64,000 nt of DNA from Candidatus Komeilibacteria bacterium. Its GTDB lineage: Bacteria; Patescibacteriota; Patescibacteriia; UBA1558. The notes beneath the pieces are model-generated. The model was not told the DNA's origin, did no database searches, and was given only the letters and a program-made list of their open reading frames with translations. Location of the stretch: positions 521,015-585,014 of the forward strand of contig JBLYPX010000001.1 in assembly GCA_048538235.1 (NCBI GenBank), written 5' to 3'. Shown here one piece after another: positions 20,398-62,025 of this stretch (the stretch's first letter is position 1; every line of letters starts with the position of its first letter). Made by a program: the position numbers and the translations under genes.

Positions 20398-21027
20398 TTA
20401 TTTATACAACTTAATAGCTTTCATAATAGCTTTTTCTGTAATAACTAAACTTGGATGTCTTAATAGATCCAAAACATTCAAACTGTTAAAAGGCAATGTC
20501 TGAACATTAGGAAGATTCTTTGCAGCTTTAATTACATTTTCATTATTTCTAGCCATAACTAAAGTTGCTTTTTTATCTTTACCAATTAGTTTTACAAAAA
20601 ACTCATTTAAAACTTTTGTTTTACCATCTTTAATAGCTAATTTATCTACAATAAATATCTGGTTATTAGCCAATTTATTTGTCAAAACCATCTTTAAGGC
20701 CTTCTTTCTGACTTTATCGTTAATACGTTCTGAGAAATTACGTTCCTTTGTTGGTCCAAAAGTTACTCCACCGCCACGCCATAAAGGTGAGCGAATAGAA
20801 CCATGTCTAGCACGGCCAGTTCCTTTCTGACGCCAAGGCTTTTTACCGCCACCACGAACATCACTTCTGCCCTTAGTGTGGCTTAAATTCTCTCTTTGAT
20901 TGGCCCTAGCAGCTGTTACTACTTCGTGAAGTAGTGTTGGCTTAACTTCTACAGCAAAAATATCCTCTGGTAATTCTAGAGTTTTAATCTCTTTTGCTTC
21001 TTGATTGTAAACTTTTGCTGTTAACAT
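20398..21027 (-). CDS. rplD: 50S ribosomal protein L4
   Basis: 209 aa typical L4. Confidence 0.9.
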   Translation of the reverse strand: MLTAKVYNQEAKEIKTLELPEDIFAVEVKPTLLHEVVTAARANQRENLSHTKGRSDVRGGGKKPWRQKGTGRARHGSIRSPLWRGGGVTFGPTKERNFSERINDKVRKKALKMVLTNKLANNQIFIVDKLAIKDGKTKVLNEFFVKLIGKDKKATLVMARNNENVIKAAKNLPNVQTLPFNSLNVLDLLRHPSLVITEKAIMKAIKLYK

Positions 21028-21818: not shown

Positions 21819-22027
21819 AATTTTATAATCTGGTTTTTAGTTAACAAAAACCGTGATTAATTTTTACCAGCCTACCCTAGCAGACTTACAAAAACCAATC
21901 GCGGTTGCTCATTAAGACATTTGTCTTAAACTTATATACTTTTGAGCATTTTATTCAATTCTTAATTATCCTTTGATTAAACGAATCTGTTTTACCACTT
22001 CCATAACGGGTTAGTAAAACTGACAGC

Positions 22028-22429: not shown

Positions 22430-23620
22430 TTACTTAATAATTTTAGTAACAATACCAGCTCCAACTGTATGACCACCTTCACGAATAGCAAACTTTTGCT
22501 TTTCTGACATGGCAACAGGGGTGATAAGTTTAATCTTAACTGTAACAGTATCTCCAGGCATAACCATTTCTGTACCAGCTGGAAGTTCATATACATCACC
22601 AGTTACATCAGTTGTTCTGATATAGAACTGTGGCTTATATCCTTTAAAGAATGGAGTGTGTCTACCACCTTCATCTTTGGATAGAATATATATTTCAGCT
22701 TCCATTTCAGTATGTGGAGTAATTGTTCCTGGTTTAGCAAGCACCTGACCTCTTTCAACGTCAGTCTTCTTTAGACCACGGATCAAAATACCGGCATTAT
22801 CTCCAGCACGACCCTCATCTAAACTCTTGTTAAACATTTCAATACCAGTAACTGTAGTTTTTTGAGTGTCTCTAATTCCAACGATTTCTACTTCTTCGTT
22901 TACCTTAATAACACCACTTTCAATTCTACCAGTCACAACAGTACCACGACCTTCGATTGAGAAGATATCTTCAACAGGCATTAAGAAATCCTTATCTACA
23001 TCTCTCTTAGGTTCTGGAATATATTCATCTAATTTTTCAATTAGAGAAACAACAGCCTTAGCATCTTCACCAGTTGGATCTTCTAAAGCTTTTAGAGCTG
23101 AACCACGAATAATTGGTGTTTCGTCTCCAGGGAATTCATATTTCTTTAACAAATCTCTGATTTCTTCTTCAACTAGATCAATTAATTCTGGATCATCTAC
23201 TTGATCTGTCTTGTTTAAGAAAACAACAATATATGGTACGCCCACCTGTCTAGCTAGCAAGATATGCTCTCTAGTTTGTGGCATAGGGCCATCAGCTGCA
23301 GAAACAACTAAAATAGCACCGTCCATCTGGGCTGCACCAGTAATCATATTTTTAATATAGTCAGCGTGACCAGGACAGTCGATATGAGCATAGTGACGTT
23401 TGTCACTTTCATATTCAACGTGAGCGGTCGCAATTGTAATACCACGCTCTTTTTCTTCAGGAGCGGCATCAATTTGACTAACGTCTTTTGTCTGTGCTGT
23501 TTTACCAGCTGCAGTTAAACTACTTAGAATAGCTGCTGTTAATGTTGTTTTACCATGATCAACGTGACCAATAGTACCCACATTAACGTGTGGCTTTGAT
23601 CTATCAAATGCTTCAGCCAT
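22430..23620 (-). CDS. tuf: elongation factor Tu
   Basis: 396 aa with [15 protein letters not shown] and NKxD motifs. Confidence 0.95.
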
Positions 23621-23721
23621 GATTATTATTCTCCATTCGCGCAGATATTACCCAACCCGCGCTTACTTAGTAATTAAATGTATTTATTTTTTGTAAAAAA
23701 AAATTGCTATATTGCGTAAGG

Positions 23722-23749
23722 ATTATAACACAATCTGACAGTTTTGCAA
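23722..23749 (-). promoter_or_regulatory. sigma70-like promoter for tuf (TTGCAA-16 bp-TATAAT on the minus strand)
   Basis: Minus-strand -35 TTGCAA (23749-23744), 16-bp spacer, -10 TATAAT (23727-23722), about 95-nt leader to the tuf ATG with SD GGAGAA. Confidence 0.5.
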
Positions 23750-23891
23750 GACCTAATAATAGTAATTTTAAAAACTGCCTAATTTTGTATATTTTTTAGC
23801 TAATATTAGCTAAATTATCTCCTTTATTTCCTAAATCTATAAAATAATTGTCTATTTTATATATCTACTTGTGGAAAACTATCCCTTTTAC

Positions 23892-24278
23892 CTATTCATC
23901 TATTTCTTCAAAGAAGAATTCATCTCCTTCGTCTGGCTCTTGAATATTGCTAATAGGTGGCGCAAAAGAAGCCTCTGCCCTATCTGCAATAACGTCTTTA
24001 ACTGATATTGGGCCATTTGGCACACTATTATGCTTAATTGGCTCCATTATTGGTGCTTCAGAGCTAATTATATCATTTAGTGCTTGTTTCTCATCTTCTA
24101 TATCCATTGTCTTTTCCTTTAATTCATCTTTTGCAATAAATTGAGACTTTGCCTGATTATCTCTAACCAAATCCTCATACGAGTCTAAATCCATTACTAC
24201 TAATAGATCTGTGTCGGTTGCAACAATTATTTTGTCTTTTGTTTTTTTAATTAAATTTCCTAATCTATTTATATCCAT
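23892..24278 (-). CDS. hypothetical acidic protein with a Phd/YefM-antitoxin-like N-terminal segment
   Basis: 128 aa. Residues about 5-40 (NRLGNLIKKTKDKIIVATDTDLLVVMDLDSYEDLVRD) resemble the Phd/YefM fold motif R.GNL.....I....AVLVS.E.YE.L. Long acidic C-terminus (EPDEGDEFFFEEIDE). No cognate toxin nearby. Confidence 0.4.
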   Translation of the reverse strand: MDINRLGNLIKKTKDKIIVATDTDLLVVMDLDSYEDLVRDNQAKSQFIAKDELKEKTMDIEDEKQALNDIISSEAPIMEPIKHNSVPNGPISVKDVIADRAEASFAPPISNIQEPDEGDEFFFEEIDE

Positions 24279-24279
24279 A

Positions 24280-25548
24280 TTATTTATAATAAATATTTAT
24301 ATACTCATAGTTATTCATATCTACAAGCTCTGTCTCAGACGCTTTATTAAAATCTATAAACACTGGCGGTCTACCATCCACACCAATAATTGCACTATTA
24401 TCTGTTACAGCATAGAGCTTATTTACCAAACTAATATCTGACCAAACATATATTGGAATTATCTTATCTGCCACAGTGCTATACATTACCAGTTTTTGAT
24501 TAGTTGGAATATATAGATAATTATCTAGCCAATACAAATTATTTAAACTTGGCGCACTAATAGCAGAAAGATCATCTATGTATATTGATTTAATTTTATG
24601 CAGACTAATATTATATAGAACAACTTCATTATTATCTCCATTCATTTCATCCTCCCAACTCATCTTAGGCAATATGAAAGCTATATATTCACCACTTGGA
24701 GACAAATATGGATAACCAGCTGTTTTAATCTTATTTTCCTCATCTACTTGTGAAAAATAGTTATCTAATGCCAATTGGAAACTATCTTTATCTATAACTC
24801 CCTCTGCAATATTTAAGAACTGAACCCTGCCAAGCACAGAAGCGCCTGCATCTGCATTAAACTGGTATAGAATAAGATTTTCTTGAGAATTATCATACCC
24901 AAGTATTTTTAGGCCTGAATAAATACCACCACTGACATCTGCTACTAAAGTATGTATATCTTTAACAGTATCATATTCCCATATCTCTACAGATTTAGAA
25001 CCACCTTCTAAGAGCTCCAAACTCTCATCTGAATACAAATTTGTTGAATAAGCAATTTTACTCTTATCTAATGAATAAACAGCTCCAGTAATAAACTTCC
25101 TCTGATTATTTACTTCTTTATTTGGTAAGCTAAAAATTTCTGCCACATCTCCAGTTTCTAAATATAATTCATAAAGCTCTGTACCACCCGCATCTTTATC
25201 CTGCCAAAAATCTTTAATTAAAAATACAGCATCTTGCTGTATATTTGTAGATAGTAAAGAATATTTACCTTCTACTACTTCTGAAATTGTCTGAATATCT
25301 TTGTTTAATTCCTGACTAGCCAATTTATACCCACCAGCAGATAAATCCAAACCCACAAAAGAAACATTGCCAATCTCTGGTTTATTCTCATTAACCACCT
25401 CTTCAGTAGTTATTATGTCTACAGTTTGTATTTCTTCGCCATCTTTTAAACTAATAGAAACAACAACACCTATAAGTACTATTATTACTATACCTATAAC
25501 AACACTCATTATTTGAGAAAAACCTTTGTCGTTTACCATAAATATTAT
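24280..25548 (-). CDS. hypothetical membrane-anchored protein (single N-terminal TM, large extracytoplasmic domain)
   Basis: Track ORF 24280-25599. A minus-strand promoter-like TTGACA(25599-25594)-TAAAAT overlaps the first codons, so the start is probably ATG 25548 (MVNDKGFSQIMSVVIGIVIIVLIGVVV...). No recognised domain. Confidence 0.45.
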   Translation of the reverse strand: MIFMVNDKGFSQIMSVVIGIVIIVLIGVVVSISLKDGEEIQTVDIITTEEVVNENKPEIGNVSFVGLDLSAGGYKLASQELNKDIQTISEVVEGKYSLLSTNIQQDAVFLIKDFWQDKDAGGTELYELYLETGDVAEIFSLPNKEVNNQRKFITGAVYSLDKSKIAYSTNLYSDESLELLEGGSKSVEIWEYDTVKDIHTLVADVSGGIYSGLKILGYDNSQENLILYQFNADAGASVLGRVQFLNIAEGVIDKDSFQLALDNYFSQVDEENKIKTAGYPYLSPSGEYIAFILPKMSWEDEMNGDNNEVVLYNISLHKIKSIYIDDLSAISAPSLNNLYWLDNYLYIPTNQKLVMYSTVADKIIPIYVWSDISLVNKLYAVTDNSAIIGVDGRPPVFIDFNKASETELVDMNNYEYINIYYK

Positions 25549-25656
25549 AATTATTAAGAATGTATAGGGAATTTTATACTGTATATATATATTTGTCAAA
25601 GTTGTTTATTGACATCATCTATTGACAATATTTTAGACGAATGTTATTGTGTTCTG

Positions 25657-25946
25657 GCTATAATGTACATTAAATTTTGTCTAGTCAGAGTAGTTGCTTT
25701 TGACATTGCCTATTTCACCAAAAAAAACCATTTCCCATGGTTTCAGCTGCAAATCCGAAACTAGGTGACTATCAGGAACAACATGACACTGGCTAGACAT
25801 ATTTCCAAGGGCTCTGAGATTCCCTCCCCTTACGAACGATCGTATACGAATCTTATTTGCCCTTTTTAACCGAGAGCTATTTCCTACTCTACAGCTCTCC
25901 TTACCGCAGAGCGCTAGGTCAATGACTTGGCGCTCTTTCTTTTAAC
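25657..25946 (+). ncRNA. candidate structured small RNA (unclassified), GC-enriched and ORF-free, between a plus-strand promoter-like element and a strong bidirectional terminator
   Basis: TTGACA(25622-25627)-17-TATTGT(25645-25650). Local GC clearly above flanks. Multiple helices (gagagct...agctctc, agagcgc...gcgctct). No ORF of 60 aa or more. Strand assignment is uncertain. Confidence 0.3.
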
Positions 25947-25978
25947 AAAAAACCCGTGAAATATTTCACGGGTTTTTA
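25947..25978. terminator. strong bidirectional terminator after fusA (aacccgtgaa-atat-ttcacgggtt)
   Basis: Perfect 10-12 bp stem with A-tract and T-tract flanks, 20 nt downstream of the fusA stop. Confidence 0.7.
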
Positions 25979-25996
25979 TATATAATCTATATCTAA

Positions 25997-28093
25997 TTAA
26001 TTCTTGCCTTCTTTAATCTTTTCTTCAACATTCTTTGGCACTTCGGCATAATGTGAGAATTCCATACTATATGATGCTCTACCCTTGGATAGAGAACGGA
26101 TAGCAGTAGAATAACCAAACATTTCTCCTAGAGGCACATCAGCGTCTACAATCTTCATTTGACCTCTATCTCCCATTTCTTTAATCTGAGCACGTTTAGA
26201 GTTAAGATCTCCAATAACATCACCCATAGATTCTTCAGGAGTTACAACTTCTACTTTCATAATAGGTTCCAAAAGGACAAGTCCTGCCTTAGCACAAGCT
26301 GCTTTAAAGGCCATAGCTCCGGCAACTTTAAAGGCTGCTTCAGAAGAGTCAACTTCATGATATGATCCGTCATAGACATTAACACTAACATCAATTAATG
26401 GATAGCCAGCCAATATTCCATTCTCCATAGTTTCTTTAACACCTTTTTCAATTGGAGCAATGTACTCTTTTGGAATTGCACCACCTTTAATAGTGCTCTC
26501 AAATTCAAAACCAGCACCACGTTCACGACTTTCAACTTTTAACCAACAGTGACCAAATTGACCACGACCACCAGATTGCTTAACATACTTACCTTCTGCT
26601 TCAGCACTACCTTTAATAGTTTCTTTGTATGCAACTTGTGGAGCACCAACATTAGCTTCAACTTGAAATTCTCTTTTCATTCTATCTACAATAATATCTA
26701 AATGAAGCTCTCCCATACCTTTAATAATTGTTTGAAGGGTTTCTTCGTCTGTAGATACTTGGAAAGTAGGATCTTCCTCGGCTAATTTAGAAAGAGCAAG
26801 GCCCATCTTTTCCTGATCTTGTTTTGTCTTAGGTTCAATAGCTACTGAAATAACAGGTTCTGGGAAAGTAATTGACTCAAGTACAATTGGATTTGCTTCA
26901 TCACATAAAGTGTCTCCAGTACCAGTATCTTTTAATCCAACAACAGCTGCAATTTCACCAGCGTAAATCTCATCCACCTCTTCACGTGAATTAGCATGCA
27001 TTCTAACGATACGACCAATTCTTTCTTTACTTTCTTTTGACGAATTATATACGTATGATCCAGCTTTTAATACGCCAGAATATACACGTACAAAACATAA
27101 TTTACCAACATATGGATCAGTTGCAATCTTAAAAGCAAGTAATGATAAAGGTTCTGCATCATCTGCTTTACGTACCATTGTTTTTTCCTCATCATCTAAC
27201 GCATGACCTTCAACAGCTGGAACATCTAGTGGAGATGGCAATAATTCTACAATAGCGTCTAATAAAAATTGAACACCTTTATTCTTTAAAGCTGTACCAA
27301 CATATATTGGAATAATTTGATTAGCAATAACACCTTTGCGCAAAGCTTTCTTTAACTCTTCTAATGAAGGTTCTTCACCACCAAGGTATTGTTCCATTAA
27401 TTTTTCATCTGTCTCTACAATAGCTTCAATTAATTTACTTCTATACTCTTCTACTTTATCTTTCATATCTTCTGGAACATCGCCTTCGGTTATATCTTTA
27501 CCAAAGTCATCATTATATATATATGATTTACGTGTCAAAAGATCAACAAGTCCTTGGAAAGTTTCAGCTGCACCAATTGGTAATTGTGCAGGATAAGCTT
27601 TATTAGTTAATCTATCTTCAATAGTTTGAATATCGTAATAGAAATCTGCTCCCATTCTATCCATTTTATTAATAAAACAGATTCTAGGAACTTCATATTT
27701 ATCTGCTTGATGCCAAACTGTTTCAGATTGAGGTTCTACACCAGCTACACCGTCAAAAATAACAACACCACCATCTAGAACACGTAAAGAACGTTCTACT
27801 TCGGCTGTAAAGTCAACGTGACCTGGGGTATCAATAATGTTAATACGGTGCATATCTTCTGGCTTATTGCGAGAAGCCCAAAAACAAGTTGTAGCAGCAG
27901 AGGTAATAGTAATACCACGCTCTTGTTCTTGTTCCATCCAGTCCATTTCAGCTTCACCTTCATGAACTTCACCTATTTTATGTTTCTTACCAGTATAGAA
28001 CAGTACTCTTTCTGTAACTGTTGTTTTACCAGCATCAATATGGGCAATAATCCCAATATTACGTACCTTATCTAAAGGATAATCTCTTGACAT
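25997..28093 (-). CDS. fusA: elongation factor G
   Basis: 698 aa with [17 protein letters not shown] and NKMD motifs. Confidence 0.95.
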
Positions 28094-28117: not shown

Positions 28118-28585
28118 TTATCTTGCGAAATGAGCAAAAGCTTTGTTTGCCTCTGCCATTTTATGGACATCCTGCTTCTTCTTCATTGCTTCACCTTCAC
28201 CATTAGCAGCATCCATTAATTCTTCAGCTAATTTCAAATGCATTGGTTTACCCTTTTTACCTTTAGATGCACCAATAATCCATCTGAAAGCAAGTTGTGT
28301 TTTACGTGAACCAGACACTACTACTGGCACCTGATAATTAGCACCACCAATACGTCTACCCTTAACTTCAATATTTGGTCCAACATTTTTAATAGCTGCA
28401 TCAAAAACATCTAGTGGATCTTGCTTTGTTTTCTTAGAAATGAAATCAAAGGCTCCATAAACTATTTTTTGAGCTACACTTTTCTTACCATCATCCATAA
28501 TGTAATTAATAAATTTAGCAATCGTTACATTGTTGAACTTTGGATCTGGTTTAATTTTTCTCTTTGGGGCTTGTTTACCTCTCAT
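28118..28585 (-). CDS. rpsG: 30S ribosomal protein S7
   Basis: 155 aa, typical S7. Confidence 0.9.
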   Translation of the reverse strand: MRGKQAPKRKIKPDPKFNNVTIAKFINYIMDDGKKSVAQKIVYGAFDFISKKTKQDPLDVFDAAIKNVGPNIEVKGRRIGGANYQVPVVVSGSRKTQLAFRWIIGASKGKKGKPMHLKLAEELMDAANGEGEAMKKKQDVHKMAEANKAFAHFAR

Positions 28586-34472: not shown

Positions 34473-34814
34473 ATGACGCAATCATCTTTAGCTACCAAGC
34501 AGGAAGGTAGATTCGAATTTAAACACGCTGGTGAAATACTCACTGGCAGAGTAGAAAAGGACAAAAGGTCGCCAGACTTTAATCTCCTACCAGGACCTGG
34601 AGAGCCATTAGACAGCAGACGCTTTCTCAAAATGGCTTCTTCTGTAAACAATAGCCCTCACTCGGAAAAGGTAAAGATCCACGTAATTCCAAATCACTCA
34701 AGTGAAAACGGAGATAAATGGAGAGTTACCTTTGAAGCACGTAACGGAGGAGACGCTTTAGAGTTTGTGCAAAAACATCTGCACAATGTTATAAAAATTG
34801 AAATGAAAGATTAA
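34473..34814 (+). CDS. hypothetical protein on a compositionally atypical (about 42% GC) mini-island
   Basis: 113 aa ORF with strong SD (aaaaggagaactt-ATG), followed by a UUCG-tetraloop terminator. It is the only plus-strand gene in a long minus-strand block, with C/G-ending codon usage unlike its neighbours. Confidence 0.5.
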   Translation: MTQSSLATKQEGRFEFKHAGEILTGRVEKDKRSPDFNLLPGPGEPLDSRRFLKMASSVNNSPHSEKVKIHVIPNHSSENGDKWRVTFEARNGGDALEFVQKHLHNVIKIEMKD

Positions 34815-34830
34815 CGCACCTTTCATCCAA

Positions 34831-34860
34831 GCCCCGTTTTTCGAAACGGGGTTTTGTTTT
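34831..34860 (+). terminator. rho-independent terminator with UUCG tetraloop (ccccgttt-ttcg-aaacgggg plus ttttgtttt)
   Basis: Perfect 8-bp GC-rich stem and a 9-nt T-tract. Confidence 0.65.
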
Positions 34861-61799: not shown

Positions 61800-61808
61800 G
61801 GGATGGGC

Positions 61809-61848
61809 TTTTGGCTGTGGATGAGCACAAACATATCCACAGCCAAAA
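61809..61848. promoter_or_regulatory. perfect 14-bp inverted repeat with 12-bp spacer (ttttggctgtggat...atccacagccaaaa) 10 nt upstream of the MerR-family gene start
   Basis: Read directly from the sequence. It is a candidate operator or 5'-leader hairpin. A second 11-bp-arm inverted repeat lies at 61930-61968. Confidence 0.4.
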
Positions 61849-61980
61849 CTCCTTTAAGATATAGTTCTTAGCCGCATGGGGGCTAGAATAGCGGTATATT
61901 ACCCTATTCCACATATATTATATATCTTTAACCATAAAGTGTAAAGCAGTACTTCATACTTTATGGTTGTGTATAAATAA

Positions 61981-62008
61981 AAAACCACTGAAACTAATCA
62001 GTGGTTTT
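61981..62008. terminator. bidirectional terminator (aaaaccactga-aactaa-tcagtggtttt) after gene 62026-62556
   Basis: 11-bp stem including A-U pairs, with flanking A-tract and T-tract. Confidence 0.6.
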
Positions 62009-62025
62009 TAAATAGTATCTATCTA

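Follow-up and report, generated by a model that had tools for sequence, protein, structure and literature searches.

A candidate small RNA gene with C-rich loops beside fusA in a narrow lineage of Patescibacteria

C-rich or UCCC-bearing loops that act as seeds have been described for the Rsa small RNAs (sRNAs) of Staphylococcus aureus (PMC2790875) and for LhrC of Listeria (PMC4132741). Here we analyse a stretch of 64,000 nucleotides (nt) from a Candidatus Komeilibacteria bacterium (Patescibacteria; hereafter "the window"), in which the gap between fusA and a gene for a protein of 419 amino acids (aa) most likely holds, judging from its sequence, a stand-alone gene for a folded non-coding RNA of ~290 nt. 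Like the UCCC-motif sRNAs of Firmicutes (RsaE/RoxS, Rsa, LhrC), this RNA would be the product of a stand-alone non-coding gene with its own promoter and intrinsic terminator, both predicted here, and it carries at least two predicted unpaired C-rich motifs (UCCC, CCUCC) in hairpin loops. It differs from them in showing no sequence or covariance-model similarity, in being two to three times longer, in belonging to an unrelated phylum, and in that the usual targets of such RNAs, Shine-Dalgarno (SD) sites, are almost absent from the window.

RNAIII of S. aureus, which is several hundred nt long and consists of several independent hairpin domains, some with C-rich loops, also resembles the RNA considered here, although the latter has no embedded peptide gene and no quorum-sensing context. 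Patescibacteria have tiny genomes and few recognisable regulators. We are aware of no characterised regulatory small RNA from this Candidate Phyla Radiation (CPR), and full-text literature searches for regulatory sRNAs of Patescibacteria or the CPR found no characterised case. The locus provides a promoter- and terminator-bounded, structurally conserved sRNA candidate with seed-like loops, together with a seed alignment for a new RNA family, and the occurrence of C-rich seeds beside nearly SD-free genes raises the question of what such seeds recognise. Because the RNA is confined to few lineages and has been lost from close relatives, its general importance is limited.

A folded block bounded by a promoter and terminators

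The original prediction had drawn attention to a GC-enriched block without open reading frames (ORFs) in this 457-nt gap (25540-25996), and both properties stand: neither strand of the gap holds an ORF of at least 60 aa (the longest, a 51-aa ORF starting with TTG, spans 25609-25764), and GC content peaks at 0.48 over 150 nt, against 0.327 across the whole window. Mean GC of the gap is 0.38, compared with 0.26-0.33 in the other gaps free of transfer RNA (tRNA) genes, with the exception of 61800-62025 (0.35), and 25600-25996 is the largest GC-enriched ORF-free gap near fusA. The description of its GC content as far above that of the flanking DNA holds for intergenic DNA, but the excess is modest relative to coding DNA (0.35-0.40). 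The signals and predicted structural elements of the gap, the latter taken from the minimum free energy (MFE) structure unless stated otherwise, are:

25571-25599, minus strand: divergent promoter of the 419-aa gene, TTGACA-17-TAAAAT (scanner score 11/12); a boundary marker of the RNA gene, not part of the RNA
25622-25650, plus strand: predicted promoter of the RNA gene, with -35 box TTGACA (25622-25627), a 17-nt spacer ending in TGt (extended -10) and -10 box TATTGT (25645-25650); scanner score 10/12, with TG
~25657-25943, plus strand: predicted primary transcript of ~287 nt, its start placed from the -10 box and its end from the H4 U-tract
25678-25799, plus strand: domain D1, a long irregular hairpin with P1 as its closing stem
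25678-25688 paired with 25789-25799, plus strand: stem P1, UGUCUAGUCAG/CUGGCUAGACA, with CUAG invariant in both arms
25725-25743, plus strand: apical hairpin of D1, AAACCAU-UUCCC-AUGGUUU, with C-rich loop 1 at 25732-25736
25807-25864, plus strand: domain D2, a stem-loop exposing C-rich motif 2, UUCCCUCCCC (25820-25829)
25836-25843, plus strand: palindrome ACGAUCGU, held by the inner hairpin of D2, UACGA-ACGA-UCGUA
25872-25899, plus strand: helix H3, GAGAGCU...AGCUCUC, with another UUUCC in its loop; present in the window only
25908-25943, plus strand: helix H4 (hairpin 25908-25936, 13 pairs in the terminator scan) and U-tract UUCUUUU, the RNA's own intrinsic terminator
25947-25978, both strands: two-way terminator hairpin AAAAACCCGUGAAA/UUUCACGGGUUUUU, seen in the sequence and in the folds of both strands

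The helices reported earlier, gagagct/agctctc (25872-25878/25893-25899) and agagcgc.../...gcgctct (25908-25936), were recovered, as were the self-complementary core ACGATCGT (25836-25843) and the plus-strand TTGACA-17-TATTGT element (25622-25650, with a TG extension). An additional TATAAT reported alongside it is present (~25660-25665) but is not kept in relatives. The closing terminator hairpin, previously given 10-12 pairs, has ~13, with U-runs on both strands; on the minus strand it terminates fusA, and on the plus strand it would back up the RNA's own terminator, so that read-through past H4 would end at ~25985.

The original reading of the block as an independent structured RNA gene is supported by its fold, by its promoter and terminator signals and by homologous blocks elsewhere. 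When MFE values were compared with those of dinucleotide shuffles, the plus-strand fold of 25660-25985 reached -103.3 kcal/mol against -59.5 +/- 5.6 kcal/mol, z = -7.9. Unpaired pyrimidine-rich motifs (UUCCCA, UUUCCAA, CCCUCC; two to four of them) are displayed in its loops and linkers: C-rich loop 1 has a mean probability of being unpaired of 0.75, against 0.41 over the whole RNA, and the window copy carries four spaced unpaired U/C-rich motifs, at ~25731, 25802, 25820 and 25880.

The earlier view that the block is not the leader of its minus-strand neighbour is borne out by the neighbour's own promoter (25599-25571), which lies downstream of the block and is kept in every relative with the gene pair, RNA-less ones included, with one exception among the loci (L088), where it is missing. 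The two divergent -35 boxes stand back to back, 22 base pairs (bp) apart in the window and 16-17 bp in relatives. Three TTGACA/TGTCAA boxes cluster within 25594-25627, one on the minus strand (25594-25599) and two on the plus strand (25610-25615, 25622-25627); the conserved pair of -35 boxes is arranged as an inverted repeat, TTGTCAAT ... TTGACAA, to which a shared regulator might also bind.

Homologues, shared anatomy and strand

Related loci were collected through a genome scan with EF-G and through protein searches with two queries, the 419-aa neighbour and EF-G; contig look-ups followed each of them. The 419-aa gene and an adjoining 128-aa gene, inserted as a pair between fusA and tuf, mark a small clade (EF-G identity at least 80%). 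The original prediction had proposed looking for the block in related genomes, and it is present at the same locus: the gap that separates fusA from the gene pair holds a homologous RNA in four further, distinct lineages of Patescibacteria and probably in a fifth (neighbour protein identities are relative to the window):

L001 (= L090-L095, L097): 69% neighbour protein identity; RNA present
L082 (= L083, L096): 69%; RNA present, with 91% nucleotide identity to L001 in the block
L098 (= L099, L100): 38%; RNA present
L089: 37%; RNA present
L084: 53%; RNA probable, with matching architecture and a CUUUCGUAA segment in common, although the D1 model described below misses it

Four-fold-degenerate sites of fusA are 0.55-0.66 identical against 0.45 expected from composition, i.e. 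near saturation, which makes neutral persistence an unlikely explanation for the motifs that L098, L089 and L084 retain.

All six copies, that of the window included, share a promoter with TTGACA, a spacer of exactly 17 nt and TAxxxT, the -10 box (TATTGT, TATGGT, TATGGT, TAATTT, TATGTT and TATGAT) falling 23-28 nt before the closing stem. Spacers read by eye show an extended -10 TG in five of the six; the promoter scanner marks this TG in three of them (window, L001, L084) and reports no promoter in L098, whose -10 box matches poorly. The leader is AU-rich, with UUAAAU(n)UU in 5/6. D1 varies from 85 to 155 nt around a plastic interior, in which the window and L001 differ by large indels, but the UUCCCA / CCAUUUCCC motif of its apical hairpin or loop is kept in L001, L082, L098 and L089, and the linker that follows often reads UUUCCAA. 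D2 was compared from individual folds, since MAFFT alignments of D2 and of all six RNAs were mis-registered. Its hairpin is found in every homologue on differing stem sequences (GAGAUUC/GAAUCUU, AUGGAUUC/GAAUCUAU, GUGUUUU/AGAACAC, UAUC/GAUG, UUCACA/UGUGAA), and its loop always holds a CCUCC-type run (UUCCCUCCCC, UUCCCCCUCAC, AUCCUCCAA or ACCCCCUCCUC) with a probability of being unpaired of 0.60-0.98 in 6/6 homologues, against whole-RNA means of 0.37-0.51. For the two C-rich motifs together, predicted unpaired probabilities are mostly, though not uniformly, high. H3 and its linker form a 43-nt gap in the alignment with L001 and are absent from the other homologues too. A terminator on the RNA strand (H4) is called by the scanner in the window, L001 and L098, while L084 uses the shared terminator; by eye, the H4 stem varies through compensatory changes in L081, L082 and L101.

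Covariation was assessed in an alignment of five sequences, two of them 91% identical. Pairs of P1/P2 are canonical in 90.8% of cases, against 26-42% when partners are slid by 1-3 columns, and five P1 pairs have changed on both sides (e.g. G-C/A-U, C-G/U-A, U-A/C-G). The covariation score of 0.295 compares with at most 0.105 for slid partners and was reached by 5 of 500 shuffles. Taken together, the compensatory changes in P1, the changes that preserve G.U pairs and the hairpins kept on different stems indicate selection on a predicted RNA structure.

The composite pattern of promoter, CUAG stem and CCYCC recovers only these homologues in ~1.1 Mb of Patescibacteria loci. A covariance model of D1 scores 84-164 bits on its five training sequences and finds nothing significant beyond them in 1.06 Mb of fusA loci; since it scores only its own training sequences, this demonstrates specificity, not independent detection. 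A protein-guided metagenome scan returned only a duplicate of L082, and self-BLAST found no second copy of the block in the window. A miniature inverted-repeat transposable element (MITE) or other dispersed repeat was rejected on the same grounds (single copy in 64 kb, none elsewhere in the 1.06 Mb of related loci); moreover, the arms of P1 keep their pairing through G.U, which points to constraint at the RNA level, unlike the DNA-level terminal inverted repeats of a MITE.

One further locus carries a block of less certain standing. In L101 a 576-nt gap (L101:6005-6580) holds a G-rich, structured stretch of ~400 nt (z = -3.8) closed by UGACUUAUC/GGAUAAGUCA, with the same antisense promoter (TTGACG-16-TATAAT), an H4-like terminator and an internal UUCCCG segment for which pairing with a GGGAAG segment is predicted. 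Its homology is uncertain: the block may represent either an enlarged relative or some other RNA.

The functional strand, which the original prediction had left open, is narrowed by these data to plus, antisense to the fusA operon. This assignment is supported by the conserved promoter, by the U-tract that follows H4 on the plus strand only, by fold z-scores, by wobble counts and by the minus strand having no defined ends, since there the block lies between a strong terminator and the promoter of the next gene. Plus-strand z-scores of the RNA bodies are -6.8 (window), -5.7, -5.3, -5.2 and -4.2, against -3.4, -2.5, -3.5, -1.4 and -2.0 for the respective minus strands, so that plus is stronger in 5/6 homologues, the exception being L089 (-1.4 plus, -2.0 minus); the L101 block gives -3.8 and -2.5. 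Among P1/P2 cells, 10 G.U stand against 4 A.C, giving 90.8% pairing for the plus strand and 83.9% for the minus.

We regard it as very improbable that the minus strand is the functional one, with the block acting, through terminator read-through, as a fusA 3' region or intercistronic leader whose G-rich motifs GGGGAGGGA and GGGAAAUGG work in cis on the gene pair. The minus strand does fold better than shuffles (z = -5.6 for the block, -1.4 to -3.5 for RNA bodies), it has the lower MFE in L089 and L084, and in the homologues found the RNA always lies upstream of the gene pair. However, on that strand a strong terminator precedes the block, which has no promoter of its own, and the conserved promoter of the gene pair follows it, placing the block outside that messenger RNA (mRNA). 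In L081, L085 and L102, the gene pair has retained its promoter but lacks the block, and the conserved plus-strand promoter, the U-tract found on the plus strand only and the fall in pairing on the minus strand all argue in the same direction.

Known families and a possible base-pairing role

A check against Rfam, proposed with the original prediction, placed no known family on the block: at gathering thresholds there was no family near it, the only matches in the 64 kb being two tRNAs. In sensitive mode (E up to 10, relaxed filters, 25400-26100, 701 nt) 16 weak matches appeared, all within 25832-26062, nearly all of them covering terminator hairpins (Leu_leader, STnc370, TEG147 and others) and scoring well below gathering thresholds; RNase P, 6S, SRP, tmRNA, RsaE and riboswitches were not among them. 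The RsaE/RoxS family was rejected on this basis, and tmRNA on that of Rfam together with ARAGORN, which found only the two tRNAs in the window. A 6S RNA, likewise without a family among the weak matches, would be similar in its abundant-RNA size, high degree of structure, stand-alone transcript and long closing stem; it differs in that D1 here is predicted with small internal loops and no obvious large central bubble, and in that the present RNA is dispensable. A cis-regulatory leader (riboswitch, T-box or ribosomal-protein leader) was rejected as well: on the plus strand only the convergent fusA follows, on the minus strand the neighbour's promoter lies downstream, and Rfam cis-regulatory families gave no match except on the terminator. 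A small-ORF gene fares no better, as no ORF is shared beyond the 91%-identical pair L001/L082 and the longest is split even there.

The original prediction had noted RNase P-like motifs without calling RNase P, a caution that proved justified. No RNaseP_bact_a/b match (bacterial types A and B) was found in the window at gathering score or in 25400-26100 at E up to 10, the resemblances are confined to short motifs on the minus strand, in the wrong order and probably on the strand opposite to the functional one, and the CR-II-like UGCGGUAAGGAGAGC lies in the genome-specific H3/linker insertion that L001 and the other homologues lack, and is thus no part of a conserved catalytic core. It is accordingly extremely improbable that the block is a very divergent housekeeping RNA (RNase P RNA, 6S RNA, SRP RNA or tmRNA) that escapes the models. 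Divergence is common among the RNAs of Patescibacteria, and P4- and CR-II-like motifs had been seen, but neither the sensitive Rfam search of the 701 nt nor ARAGORN gave a match, the CR-II-like segment is absent from all homologues, and loss in close relatives is irreconcilable with an essential single-copy RNA unless a second copy exists. By these comparisons the RNA belongs to no described family and is a candidate for a new, lineage-restricted sRNA family.

As for mechanism, we tentatively favour, by analogy with the Firmicutes RNAs, a trans-acting base-pairing sRNA of the "UCCC-loop" type as the most likely one. Transcription would begin at a dedicated promoter of the sigma-70 type, run antisense to the str operon and stop at H4 just before the fusA terminator, overlapping no gene. 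The RNA would fold in four parts, a short AU-rich leader, D1 with its CUAG closing stem, D2 and the terminator, and its exposed C-rich loops would act as seeds, pairing with G-rich stretches of target mRNAs and thereby altering their translation or stability. We infer transcription, the RNA ends, trans action and the existence of targets from sequence.

Several observations weigh against an sRNA gene of this kind. The P1 covariation, drawn from five sequences of which two are near-identical, is supportive and not conclusive, the statistics being thin, and MFE alone, plain or mirrored, fails to separate the strands because of a bias in G/U composition. The D1 covariance model fails to recover L084 or L101, for which reason L084 is graded as probable and L101 as uncertain. 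In the window, the classic target of C-rich seeds is mostly missing: among 51 gene starts inspected, SD sequences are nearly absent, and a well-placed GGAG precedes only tuf among the operon genes of the minus strand; the loop match to it is only 4 bp and too weak to count. When both loops were scanned for duplexes with 70 translation-initiation regions in the window, the only hits were artefacts of A/U runs. Finally, relatives of the window lack the RNA:

L081: closest by neighbour protein (73%); RNA absent, with D1 and D2 deleted, the promoter spacing damaged and H4 kept
L085-L086: RNA absent, with a same-strand NUDIX gene in its slot
L102: RNA absent, with a 105-nt spacer only
L088: RNA probably absent, judging from the 161 nt upstream of the gene, where the divergent promoter is missing

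Three lineages, and probably L088 as a fourth, thus have the gene pair but not the RNA, so there is no obligate coupling between the two; L002 has neither. Deletion or absence in such close relatives makes the RNA dispensable and its lineage narrow.

In L085 and L086, which represent a more distant relative, the slot is filled, on the RNA's strand, by a gene for a 175-aa NUDIX hydrolase (L085:2215-2742, L086:331-858, minus strand in locus coordinates), with the terminator of fusA on one side and the promoter of the gene pair on the other; genes seem to be exchanged preferentially at this site. This bears on the possibility that the block is inert as RNA, a decaying remnant of a plus-strand gene (such as NUDIX) or of an inserted element with a leftover promoter and terminator. 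A NUDIX gene on the same strand in the exact slot, gain and loss of the block among close relatives, the plastic interior with its large indels and an elevated GC content that would fit former coding DNA are all consistent with this view. We nevertheless consider it improbable: tblastn of the NUDIX protein against all intergenic blocks gave nothing significant (best E = 0.07, in a tiny database), on which a NUDIX pseudogene was rejected, there is no conserved reading frame, the block is single-copy and so not a repeat or MITE, and the compensatory and G.U-preserving changes in P1, along with hairpins kept on different stem sequences, point to selection on RNA structure.

The chief rival to base pairing, itself unlikely, is that the plus-strand RNA works by binding protein, its UUUCC/CCUCC motifs titrating or scaffolding a pyrimidine-binding protein (KH-domain, or ribosomal protein S1) as a sponge or ribonucleoprotein scaffold; the three other alternatives discussed above are each less likely. 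Four spaced unpaired U/C-rich motifs in the window copy form a repetition typical of protein sponges, and both the apparent scarcity of G-rich mRNA targets and the empty target search favour this explanation. On the other hand, the number of motifs is not conserved (2-3 in other homologues), the one in H3 is confined to the window, and no candidate binding protein is tied to the locus, the neighbour having no recognisable RNA-binding domain.

Gene starts in the window are preceded by an A/U-rich sequence of the AAAUAAU-AUG type (e.g. 25997-28093, 28118-28585, 20398-21027), and the near-absence of SD sequences suggests SD-independent initiation in the source organism. A more specific proposal within the base-pairing reading, which we hold to be very doubtful, is that the RNA mimics the anti-SD tail of 16S rRNA through its CCUCC/UUCCC loops, in a genome where SD-led initiation has largely been abandoned, and captures the few mRNAs with GGAG(G), for instance that of tuf or those of GC-rich genes such as the ORF at 34473-34814. 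If true, it would amount to a dedicated filter for SD-bearing messages in an ultra-small cell and would found a Patescibacteria-specific class of regulatory RNA.

Neighbouring genes and other loci

The block lies in the str/S10 ribosomal region, whose minus-strand order is rpsL, rpsG, fusA, gap, 419-aa gene, 128-aa gene, tuf, S10, L3, L4. The genes nearest to it are:

25997-28093, minus strand: fusA (EF-G, with Pfam EF-G domains)
24280-25539, minus strand: 419-aa gene
23892-24278, minus strand: 128-aa gene
22430-23620, minus strand: tuf

The 419-aa gene most likely starts at the ATG at 25539, although its listed ORF extends to a TTG at 25599. Its product has no Pfam, NCBIfam, PADLOC or PDB-sequence match; in an AlphaFold model (predicted local distance difference test score, pLDDT, 67) a membrane helix at the N terminus is joined by a disordered linker to a beta-propeller, for which Foldseek returns generic WD40 and S9-peptidase propellers. 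By this model the product is a beta-propeller anchored in the membrane. No family match was found for the 128-aa protein, and neither protein has a recognisable RNA-binding or RNA-processing domain.

The region upstream of tuf (23621-23891, minus strand) holds a strongly conserved promoter of tuf itself, TTGCAA/TTGCCA-17-TGtTATAAT, and a ~110-nt 5' leader, in which a conserved hairpin, GCGCGGGUUGGGUAAUAUCUGCGCG, is followed by one of the region's few SD-like GGAG sites. Counterparts are found at L001:9492-9760, L082:6640-6907, L084:6682-6957 and L002:8617-8916, the last being a locus with neither the RNA nor the gene pair, and this leader may be a cis-regulatory element of tuf.

The ORF at 34473-34814 (plus strand, 113 aa, GC 0.46) stands alone within a long run of minus-strand genes. 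It has a strong AAGGAG SD sequence 7 nt before its ATG and its own terminator (~34832-34855), and Rfam gave no family match there; atypical for this genome, it may have been horizontally acquired.

Among the other Patescibacteria loci, the EF-G match extends over ~3,000-3,130 nt instead of ~2,100 nt in L006-L009, L023, L034, L052, L057, L058, L060 and L065, which suggests a large insertion in fusA, perhaps an intein or an extra domain. Ribosomal protein L3 (21030-21818, minus strand) is long, at 262 aa in the window and 254-274 aa in relatives, and the ~210 nt between it and S10 (21819-22027) are untranslated, an unusual arrangement inside an S10 operon.

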